Of a stretch of 64,000 nt of DNA, positions 21,001-24,276 are shown piece by piece; within the stretch, counting starts at the first letter, position 1, and every line of letters starts with the position of its first letter. The stretch lies in NCBI RefSeq assembly GCF_002854065.1, contig NZ_CP024153.1. One strand, given 5' to 3'. Source of the stretch: Escherichia coli. GTDB lineage: Bacteria; Pseudomonadota; Gammaproteobacteria; Enterobacterales; Enterobacteriaceae. The position numbers are program-made.

Positions 21001-24000
21001 CGGGCACTGTTGCAAAGTTAGCGATGAGGCAGCCTTTTGTCTTATTCAAAGGCCTTACATTTCAAAAACTCTGCTTACCAGGCGCATTTCGCCCAGGGGA
21101 TCACCATAATAAAATGCTGAGGCCTGGCCTTTGCGTAGTGCACGTATAGGAAATTGAAAAACCAGTCGATACCATTGTCCACGCCTTATGCCACGTGAGC
21201 CTTTCTGCTTTTCCCACCACTCCGGTGGTTTCCCTCTCTGTATGGTCGATTTTTATACCGTAACAGGCTGTTTTTTATACTTTCACCGATTCCCGGGCAC
21301 ACTTAGCCTGTGTCAGGCCGGCATATACCTCAGTAGACTGATATCCCGCGCGTTTTTCTTCAGCCCTGATACATTCAGCCCCGCAATGGCCCGGCGGTAT
21401 ACCATCCGGCAGCCACACAGCACGCATTCGAACGGGTCACGACTCAGGAACTGTTTCACCATTTGTGCATAGCACACTTTCGCCACTGGTTCCGGTTTAT
21501 CCATCCCCAGTGCACGGTACACCTGCGGCAGCTTCTCTCCACACACACGGTTGGCAAGGAACCCGAAGTACCTCACCATCTTAAAAAACTTCTCCGGGAT
21601 GTGCTGTTTCAGCCTCGCGACCAGCTCACGCTGTGTCAGCGTTTCCGTCGCCGTTTCTCCCGTTTTGTGGTCCAGGTAACGGAAGCTCAGGCTTGCCCCT
21701 CCGTTGTAATGAGCCAGTCGGGAAGCCGCTATTGGTGGCTTCTTCAGATAACGACCCAGGTAGCGTGCCGTATTCCGCCCTCCGGCTGTCTTCTTCGACA
21801 TGTACACATGCCAGTATTTTCCGCCGGATTTCAGCACCAGGCTTCTCCACTGTGATTCCGTCGTGATATGTGACAACGACTCCGGCATTGCCATCCCCTC
21901 TGACCACGCTTTCAGAAGCAGCTGCCGCATATTCCACATCCACCGTGAACGCATCGCGTCTTTCAGGAAGCTCAGCTTTTTCCACTGACCATGCTTATTC
22001 AGACCTCCACAGGTTACAGACACATGTACATGCGGATGCCAGTTGAGACGACGGCCATACGTGTGGATGGCGCAGAAGATACCGGGTTCCAGCCCCCGTT
22101 TTCGGGCGGCATACAGCAGATTCTCCACCGCCAGACGGCACACGTCATTCAGCAGCCAGCGGTTGCTTTCGAACACCGGCCACAGCGTGTCCGGCAGGGT
22201 GAAGACCAGATGTACCCAGTCGCAGTCAGGAAGACGATTCAGCTGTGTTGCTGTCCACAGGTCTGTGGCCTTCTTTCCGCAGGACGGGCAGGCACGGCTG
22301 CCGCATGAGTTGGTCAGGTACTTTACGTGCTGACAGTCCGGGTTATCACACCCGAACTCTTTTACACCCAGTATCCGTGTGCCGCAGGCCAGCATTTTGG
22401 TGACGGCTTCAACCTCGATATCGCGCAGACCGCCCGCATCCAGGAAGGACGTCCAGCACTGGTTGGCTGTGAACAGACGTTTCAGAGGGCGGGGAGTAAA
22501 ACCGGACAACATGAGGATGGATTAAACCCCGGTATCCTGTAGCAGGGTAAGGGCTGCTGTATCGCCACGGCGCTTCAGGATGGAGGTCGTCACCATCGCA
22601 GGTGGTGGGTCCATGGGTTTGAGCATTTTCATCCAGTCCCATTCTCGTTGTGAGAGCTTCTCAGCACCAACAGAGAGCAGAACTGTATCGATACTTTTGC
22701 GGGTCAACATAAGGGGATGAGTCCTTAATAAAACAGGTCCTCAGAGCATACATATTCTGCGGGGCGTGCGGCAACAACAGGACGAACCGGGGCGGTTTTC
22801 AATTTGCAGCCGCCAGGCTGCCGTGGTTCATGATAACTTCTGCTCTTCATCGTGCGGCCGACTGGGCTAAATCTGTGTTCTCTTCGGCGGCGCTGGGTGA
22901 TCCTCGCCGTACTGCCCGCTTGGTTAACGTCGCCGCCCAATTGGCAAAATATTCTGGTAAATCAATAACCATCTCATCAGAGGGTAGTGAAGCCATGCAG
23001 GAAGGCGCTTACCGATTTATCCGCAATCCCAACGTTTCTGCCGAGGCGATCAGAAAGGCTGGCGCCATGCAAACAGTCAAGTTGGCTCAGGAGTTTCCCG
23101 AACTGCTGGCCATTGAGGACACCACCTCTTTGAGTTATCGCCACCAGGTCGCCGAAGAGCTTGGCAAGCTGGGCTCTATTCAGGATAAATCCCGCGGATG
23201 GTGGGTTCACTCCGTTCTCTTGCTCGAGGCCACCACATTCCGCACCGTAGGATTACTGCATCAGGAGTGGTGGATGCGCCCGGATGACCCTGCCGATGCG
23301 GATGAAAAGGAGAGTGGCAAATGGCTGGCAGCGGCCGCAACTAGCCGGTTACGCATGGGCAGCATGATGAGCAACGTGATTGCGGTCTGTGACCGCGAAG
23401 CCGATATTCATGCTTATCTGCAGGACAAACTGGCGCATAACGAGCGCTTCGTGGTGCGCTCCAAGCACCCACGCAAGGACGTAGAGTCTGGGTTGTATCT
23501 GTACGACCATCTGAAGAACCAACCGGAGTTGGGTGGCTATCAGATCAGCATTCCGCAAAAGGGCGTGGTGGATAAACGCGGTAAACGTAAAAATCGACCA
23601 GCCCGCAAGGCGAGCTTGAGCCTGCGCAGTGGGCGCATCACGCTAAAACAGGGGAATATCACGCTCAACGCGGTGCTGGCCGAGGAGATTAACCCGCCCA
23701 AGGGTGAGACCCCGTTGAAATGGTTGTTGCTGACCAGCGAACCGGTCGAGTCGCTAGCCCAAGCCTTGCGCGTCATCGACATTTATACCCATCGCTGGCG
23801 GATCGAGGAGTTCCATAAGGCATGGAAAACCGGAGCAGGAGCCGAGAGGCAACGCATGGAGGAGCCGGATAATCTGGAGCGGATGGTCTCGATCCTCTCG
23901 TTTGTTGCGGTCAGGCTGTTACAGCTCAGAGAAAGCTTCACGCTGCCGCAAGCACTCAGGGCGCAAGGGCTGCTAAAGGAAGCGGAACACGTAGAAAGCC

Positions 24001-24276
24001 AGTCCGCAGAAACGGTGCTGACCCCGGATGAATGTCAGCTACTGGGCTATCTGGACAAGGGAAAACGCAAGCGCAAAGAGAAAGCAGGTAGCTTGCAGTG
24101 GGCTTACATGGCGATAGCTAGACTGGGCGGTTTTATGGACAGCAAGCGAACCGGAATTGCCAGCTGGGGCGCCCTCTGGTAAGGTTGGGAAGCCCTGCAA
24201 AGTAAACTGGATGGCTTTCTTGCCGCCAAGGATCTGATGGCGCAGGGGATCAAGATCTGATCAAGAGACAGGATGA

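Follow-up and report, generated by a model that had tools for sequence, protein, structure and literature searches.

IS1294 in an Escherichia coli multiresistance plasmid: a disseminated module with IS26 and IS50L flanks and a second terIS end in stbA

IS1294, an insertion sequence (IS) of the IS91 family, uses 5'-GTTC as the target next to its oriIS end, and IS1294b uses GTCC. With its HUH/Y2 transposase, IS1294 would move by rolling-circle, single-strand transposition, in which transfer would start at oriIS beside a GTTC- or CTTG-like tetranucleotide and stop at terIS, an end that itself finishes in GTTC. The reference for the element is Tavakoli et al. 2000, Plasmid 44:66 (cited by PMC5043248 and PMC13181058), and terIS is read through in 1-14% of events for IS1294 and IS1294b (PMC13181058). 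One-ended units carrying blaCMY-2 have CTTG at their beginning and finish with GTTC (PMC5043248; also Tagg 2014 and Yassine 2015). Here we analyze IS1294 in 64,000 nucleotides (nt) of E. coli DNA (assembly GCF_002854065.1, contig NZ_CP024153.1; the whole stretch is called the window below), where a complete element, copy 1, lies between a truncated IS26 (ΔIS26) and a truncated IS50L (ΔIS50L), and where the end of a second copy interrupts stbA.

Repeat comparison confirmed that IS1294-type sequence is present in three places of the window, as had been claimed in an earlier note on this DNA. The expected numbers of chance pairs in 64 kb are about 1e-58 for an exact repeat of 112 nt and about 1e-38 for one of 78 nt, the lengths of the two partial copies. 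Copy 1 occupies 21142-22829 on the minus strand (1,688 bp). Its oriIS tip, ACGTATAGG, is at 21142 and its terIS tip, GCCGTGGTTC, is at 22829; written out further inward from the tips, the element starts ACGTATAGGAAATTG and finishes ...GCAGCCGCCAGGCTGCCGTGGTTC. These limits were set from independent insertions in other plasmids and not from recall. In NZ_CP113203 (L002), the same 1,688-bp element, with 0 differences, lies inside IS26 between ...GCAAAGTTA (...AAAGTTA) and GCGATGAGG..., and the two IS26 flanks are contiguous, with zero duplicated bases. The element therefore made no target-site duplication there, as is characteristic of the IS91 family. In CP085519 (L003), the element differs from copy 1 at 1 position, and its oriIS end is preceded by CTTG. 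The earlier note was right that copy 1 is complete, but its limits of 21141-22825 give way to those defined by these two insertions.

The two ends are unlike, as in other IS91-family elements, with oriIS downstream of tnpA and terIS upstream of it. terIS (22806-22829, plus strand) is composed of the palindrome GCAGCC-GCCA-GGCTGC at 22806-22821, which has a 6-bp stem, followed by CGTG and the cleavage tetranucleotide GTTC at 22826-22829; the same palindrome, CGTG and GTTC are present in copy 2. The tetranucleotide adjoining oriIS was read in four independent contexts and is GTTC at an orphan oriIS fragment in the window, CTTG in L003, GTGC at copy 1 and GTTA in L002. The layout of oriIS and terIS and the polarity of copy 1 agree with the account of IS91, IS801, IS1294 and IS1294b in PMC13181058 and with the blaCMY-2 units of PMC5043248. 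Hairpin folding of both ends gave energies no different from those of shuffled sequence (z = -0.8 to -1.5), so that folding lends the ends no statistical support. A subterminal AAATTGAAAA(A)CC motif was observed in inverted orientation at both IS1294 ends, at 21151-21164 (10 nt from the oriIS tip) and 22796-22808 (22 nt from the terIS tip); to our knowledge, IS1294 is usually described as lacking terminal inverted repeats.

The tnpA gene (21313-22512, minus strand) encodes a protein of 399 amino acids (aa) with an N-terminal zinc-binding domain, an HUH motif (HPHVHV, residues 159-164) and two tyrosines in a YxxxY motif (Y251-x3-Y255). Its Pfam matches are Zn_Tnp_IS91 (3.7e-21) and Y2_Tnp (1.6e-57), and it scores 309.6 bits against the NCBIfam IS91 transposase model NF033538, for which the cutoff is 125. 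TnpA thus combines the marks of an IS91-family transposase, namely, membership of the HUH superfamily, Y2_Tnp and an N-terminal zinc-binding domain, and the family assignment of the earlier note stands. In tblastn, a protein at least 99% identical to TnpA was the best match in 1,178 plasmid records. Nine nucleotides upstream of tnpA lies an open reading frame (ORF) of 62 aa (22522-22710, minus strand), which RefSeq annotates as hypothetical. Neither Pfam nor NCBIfam gave a match for this ORF, and it does not align to the one that lies upstream in an 83%-identical relative. We rejected it as an analogue of Orf121 of IS91, to which BLASTP gave an E value of 1.1. Copy 1 is very probably IS1294, a member of the IS91 family; the name rests on the annotation of an identical module as IS1294 by the authors of PMC6052338 and PMC7843705 and on the match to pHNZY32 (NZ_MG197502), which corresponds to window positions 19241-32112 at 99.9%.

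On the terIS side, copy 1 abuts ΔIS50L (22830-24271, plus strand), which comprises IS50 nt 93-1534 and has its inside end at 24253-24271. The junction site in intact IS50 reads GGTAACGTTC / ATGATAAC (...CTAACATGGTAACGTTC / ATGATAACTTCTGC... when read further), and IS50L in the window starts ATGATAAC at 22830, directly after the terIS GTTC. The intact form was checked with a composite query, which 49 plasmid records matched at 80% coverage or more; all 8 of the records listed were 100% identical over the full query, and one of them is annotated IS50R. In intact IS50, a GTTC at nt 89-92 immediately precedes the point where IS1294 is joined, and nt 1-92 are missing from the window. The earlier note had already placed the junction at a GTTC and read this as the target preference of the family, which is borne out; the outer end of IS50L is gone, as it stated, but the loss amounts to 92 bp and not to some 80 bp. 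The IS50 copy is IS50L, since its Tnp ORF is 450 aa long with an ochre stop and is followed by aph(3')-IIa. Because IS1294 inserts 3' of its target GTTC and brings its own terIS GTTC, the junction is the expected product of a canonical insertion at IS50 nt 89-92. With terIS joined to IS50 nt 93, right after the IS50 GTTC, the bases at the junction show that an ancestor underwent a canonical IS1294 insertion in the IS50L of Tn5.

The other flank tells of a different target. oriIS abuts ΔIS26 (21003-21144, plus strand), made up of IS26 nt 1-139 and 3 nt (ACG) common to the IS1294 end, and this fragment sits downstream of the IncX1 toxin-antitoxin genes stbD/E (20294-20816). The adjoining tetranucleotide, GTGC at 21138-21141 (plus strand; IS26 nt 136-139), is non-canonical, the canonical ones being GTTC or CTTG; it departs from GTTC at a single position. 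GTGC is a rare target of IS91 in vivo, with 2 of 240 insertions (PMC13181058). A second, independent, non-canonical IS1294 target in IS26 is the GTTA at IS26 nt 15-18 in L002 (1375-3100). Intact IS26 was found at the identical stbD/E flank in 7 Klebsiella pneumoniae plasmids, which is a plausible pre-insertion state. Since oriIS is flanked by IS26 with GTGC and not by IS50, copy 1 is not a simple insertion at its present site; with flanks from two targets, it must have behind it at least two IS1294-dependent events or a recombination. The earlier note overlooked the truncated IS26, and its proposal that IS1294 simply replaced the outer end of IS50L fails on this point.

Two sequence likenesses near these flanks were set aside. 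TAGT precedes the tetranucleotide both at copy 1 (TAGTGC) and at the orphan (TAGTTC); as microhomology or an extended target it was treated as coincidence, because the L002, L003, IS50 and stbA flanks do not have TAGT. A 17-bp inverted similarity past the ends of IS26 copies (20986-21002 versus 26097-26113) was considered as an inverted target duplication and amounts to a weak T-rich likeness only.

Copy 1 is part of a mosaic with the order stbD/E(IncX1)-ΔIS26-IS1294-ΔIS50L-aph(3')-IIa-Δble-IS26-oqxAB-IS26. Window positions 21003-24271 were 100% identical over the full length in all 25 records listed, and coverage of this segment reached 80% or more in at least 171 records. The carriers, of animal, human and wastewater origin, belong to E. 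coli, Salmonella, Klebsiella and Shigella, and the module is also found in IncR/IncX1 K. pneumoniae plasmids from Spanish hospitals. It has been described in pYUHAP5-2, pACN001-A, pCTXM-2271 and pCFSA1007-2, whereas pHNZY32, pHNAH24 and pHNMCC14 carry it the other way round (PMC7843705), and the same arrangement is known from F33:A-:B- plasmids (PMC6052338, PMC10654068). Thus, the arrangement IS26-Δble-aph(3')-IIa-ΔIS50-IS1294-ΔIS26-stbD/E is already known and globally disseminated. Being published and identical in other plasmids, the module was inherited, and the event that formed it predates the plasmid of the window.

We infer, with moderate confidence, that the hybrid flanks arose by one-ended transposition of IS1294 from IS50L into IS26, with the distal end removed later by IS26. 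IS1294 in IS50L would have read through terIS and carried ΔIS50L-aph(3')-IIa-ble into IS26 at GTGC, this IS26 already lying beside stbD/E on an IncX1 plasmid. A later event involving the IS26 at 25277-26096 would then have cut ble and erased the distal junction. The passenger DNA (ΔIS50L-aph(3')-IIa, then oqxAB) lies on the terIS side, which is the right polarity for one-ended transposition. Two marks of a one-ended unit are present, oriIS beside a tetranucleotide and passenger DNA beyond an intact terIS, and the position expected for the distal end is occupied by IS26 at 25277.

Several points weigh against this account and the naming on which it builds. The length of IS1294 in ISfinder, 1,689 bp, differs from the 1,688 bp measured here. 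The use of GTGC as a target is on record for IS91 and not for IS1294. IS26 has removed whatever distal end a one-ended unit had. Finally, two junctions expected of the ancestors, IS50 nt 1-92 / oriIS (GGTAACGTTC / ACGTATAGG) and terIS / IS26 nt 140 onward (GCCGTGGTTC / ACGCATCACC), were both absent from the 72,556 plasmids of PLSDB and from exact-pattern scans of genome contigs and metagenome contigs. A synthetic query for the second junction returned only two-piece, non-contiguous matches, in which IS26 lies beside an IS1294 terIS end elsewhere. Since no ancestral junction was found, it is parsimony that orders the events and that decides whether one-ended transposition or recombination is preferred.

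The strongest competing explanation, which we regard as a real but lesser possibility, is RecA-dependent homologous recombination of two simple IS1294 insertions, one at the GTTC of IS50L and the other at the GTGC of IS26, without any one-ended transposition. IS1294 is commonly multicopy in related plasmids, with many places per record; simple insertion of IS1294 into IS26 does occur, as in L002; and recombination between IS1294 copies has already been invoked for related plasmids (PMC6052338). The two routes differ in their predictions. Both demand the IS50 nt 1-92 / oriIS junction, whereas the terIS / IS26 nt 140 junction is predicted by recombination, and this required parent is missing from PLSDB and from the genome scan. 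Recombination also needs one event more than one-ended transposition.

The second IS1294 place in the window is the terIS end of copy 2 (63923-64000, plus strand), visible for 78 bp up to the window end. Its orientation is opposite to that of copy 1, from which it is separated by 41,093 bp. The inverted match and its distance of about 41 kb agree with the earlier note, in which its start was put 4 bp too far in, at 63927. The visible 78 bp, which include the element's own GAAC/GTTC, are 100% identical to copy 1, and the terIS ends of the two copies face each other. Copy 2 interrupts stbA, of which the 5' part remains at 63855-63922 (plus strand; ATG at 63855, first 68 nt). Intact stbA, as in pNT1W25-tetX4, continues CGAGAACTGG past nt 68, so that the target on the transferred strand would be CTCG, with a GTTC two bases away. 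CTCG is a minor target of IS91 (PMC13181058).

The stbA::IS1294 junction was not found in PLSDB, in the complete E. coli genomes of RefSeq, in genome contigs or in metagenome contigs, and it is the sole junction of the window absent from every collection searched. It is probably a recent event in the lineage of the window's plasmid, and copy 2 is likely to be a recent, complete, simple insertion in stbA at CTCG. If so, the remaining 1,610 bp or so of the element should lie past position 64000, with the sequence of copy 1 up to ...CAATTTCCTATACGT, and CGAGAACTGGCTGG should come next. We consider it unlikely that copy 2 is a terIS-end fragment only (truncated, for example, by IS26 just past 64000), in which case a second transposase gene and a 1.7-kb inverted repeat would both be lacking. 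Remnants of IS1294 are admittedly common in related plasmids, as seen in the orphan at 14290-14401 and in truncated tblastn matches, and a 697-bp deletion of IS1294 has been described in p42-2 (PMC6052338). Against a fragment stand the full identity of the visible sequence to copy 1 and the clean stbA junction, which ends in the GTTC of the element; in addition, a junction unique to the window's plasmid suggests a recent event and little time for decay. A complete, simple insertion therefore remains the preferred interpretation of copy 2. As stbA is broken after nt 68, its stability function may be lost. A new insertion of IS1294 in stbA on a tet(X4)-type backbone also points to probable continuing activity of the element in this lineage. 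Just upstream of stbA, at 63648-63796, we noted about 14 copies of the 11-bp unit AGACTACAAAG, which probably form an stbA binding site or centromere-like site.

The third occurrence is an orphan oriIS end of IS1294 (14290-14401, 112 bp, plus strand), inverted relative to copy 1 and cut by the IS26 at 13468-14289. The earlier note correctly found that the transposase-distal end of copy 1 recurs here, but gave 14290-14404 (115 bp) and did not state the inverted orientation. Beside oriIS lies GAAC at 14402-14405 (plus strand), which is the canonical target GTTC on the transferred strand, and then gshB (14466-15929). The fragment is already in the literature, given as 114 bp from the oriIS end and placed by gshB in an IncN segment like that of pABWA45_3 (PMC6052338). 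It is what IS26 spared of a canonical IS1294 insertion at GTTC by gshB in the IncN segment. The adjacent IS26 copy (13468-14289) measures 822 bp and not 820. Homopolymer runs have gained one base each after IS26 nt 304 and 366, which leaves no full-length tnp26 ORF, whereas all other IS26 copies in the window are identical. Either this IS26 is dead or the long-read consensus is wrong here, and the latter would bear on the quality of the assembly.

If copy 2 is complete, RecA-dependent inversion of the 41 kb between the two copies is possible in principle. The seven IS26 copies of the window, which occur in both orientations, are at least as likely as the IS1294 pair to drive rearrangements, and IS26 recombination has been invoked for the opposite orientation of the IS1294 module in related plasmids (PMC7843705). 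It is improbable that IS1294 inserted directly into IS50L in the window's plasmid, deleting the outer end, and that the inverted pair now acts as a 41-kb inversion switch: the terIS junction does lie exactly 3' of the IS50 GTTC, and the inverted ends do agree at every one of the 78 bp, but the other flank is IS26, which is neither IS50 nor a deletion endpoint in DNA flanking Tn5, the published and identical junctions in other plasmids make the event older than this plasmid, and there is no evidence for inversion isomers, with 78 bp of copy 2 visible. Equally doubtful is the combined proposal that the stbA::IS1294 junction is the scar of an IS1294-mediated fusion, in which one-ended transposition or IS1294 recombination would have brought together the multiresistance region and the IncFIA/FIB sil backbone, and that the orphan oriIS, with its retained GTTC, could be mobilized in trans by the TnpA of copy 1 and carry the adjacent IS26 and dfrA12-aadA2 integron like a terIS-less ISCR element.

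The window as a whole contains an IS26-rich multiresistance region with qnrS, arr-3/catB3/blaOXA-1/aac(6')-Ib, dfrA12-aadA2, gshB, an IS110-family element, ΔrepA(IncN), IncX1 stbD/E, the IS1294 module and oqxAB. It is joined at an IS26 (32112) to a backbone with sil, sopAB, RepB and stbA, as in IncFIA/FIB/X1 tet(X4) plasmids from pigs. Within the module, aph(3')-IIa (24289-25083, plus strand) lies beyond the terIS of copy 1, on its passenger side. Next comes Δble, truncated by the IS26 at 25277-26096.

Three repeat structures were observed elsewhere in the window. Two tandem copies of the 40-bp IS26 terminus lie at 9368-9447, where a complete IS26 (8588-9407) is followed by an extra 40-bp end (9408-9447). 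About 29 tandem 37-bp repeats with the consensus GGGCGGATTTCCACACGGCACCGGCGCCCGGCAAGGT and 91% matches occupy 53882-54967, a region unannotated in pNT1W25-tetX4; the long ORFs across this array are probably spurious. About five 43-bp direct repeats at 57347-57553 adjoin sopB/sopA (57637-59783), and their period resembles that of the sopC centromere repeats of F, which are 43 bp long.

With its passenger DNA on the terIS side, copy 1 can co-mobilize aph(3')-IIa and, past IS26, oqxAB, and not the IncX1 segment on the oriIS side. The earlier note's suggestion that adjacent resistance genes could be mobilized by one-ended transposition is consistent with this polarity. It has been suggested that IS1294 mobilized the adjacent IncX1 segment (PMC6052338); this is at odds with the polarity, since that segment (window 19241-21141) lies on the oriIS side and one-ended transposition carries DNA from the terIS side. 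IS1294 is a recognized mobilizer of resistance genes and of pieces of plasmid backbone, and the present locus has little import past routine plasmid annotation. Its junctions are now on record at the base level, with GTGC in IS26 and nt 93 in IS50.

Compared with IS91, which has orf121, and with ISCR elements, the window element is alike in its predicted rolling-circle mechanism, in the asymmetry of oriIS and terIS and in the one-ended transposition proposed for it. Its TnpA is about 34% identical to that of IS91 (tblastn), and the 62-aa ORF upstream of its tnpA is without similarity to Orf121. It agrees with described IS1294 in having an HUH/Y2 transposase with a zinc-binding N terminus, no target duplication and a terIS palindrome followed by GTTC. 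Nothing of substance sets it apart. The known neighbor of oriIS is GTTC or CTTG; the orphan has GTTC, whereas copy 1 has GTGC.

The IS1294/IS1294b-ΔISEcp1-blaCMY-2-blc-sugE units resemble copy 1 in that the IS lies in another mobile element and the resistance gene lies on the terIS side, a layout that permits co-mobilization through terIS read-through in both cases. The blaCMY-2 units keep both ends (CTTG ... GTTC), whereas the distal end of the window unit was lost to IS26, and one-ended transposition is what we infer for it. With the published module of pHNZY32 and related plasmids, the window shares the same junctions and the same order. It differs from them in that IS26 at 19240 has left only 1.76 kb of the IncX1 arm and in that the module resides in an IncFIA/FIB-type backbone with sil genes, like that of the tet(X4) plasmid pNT1W25-tetX4.

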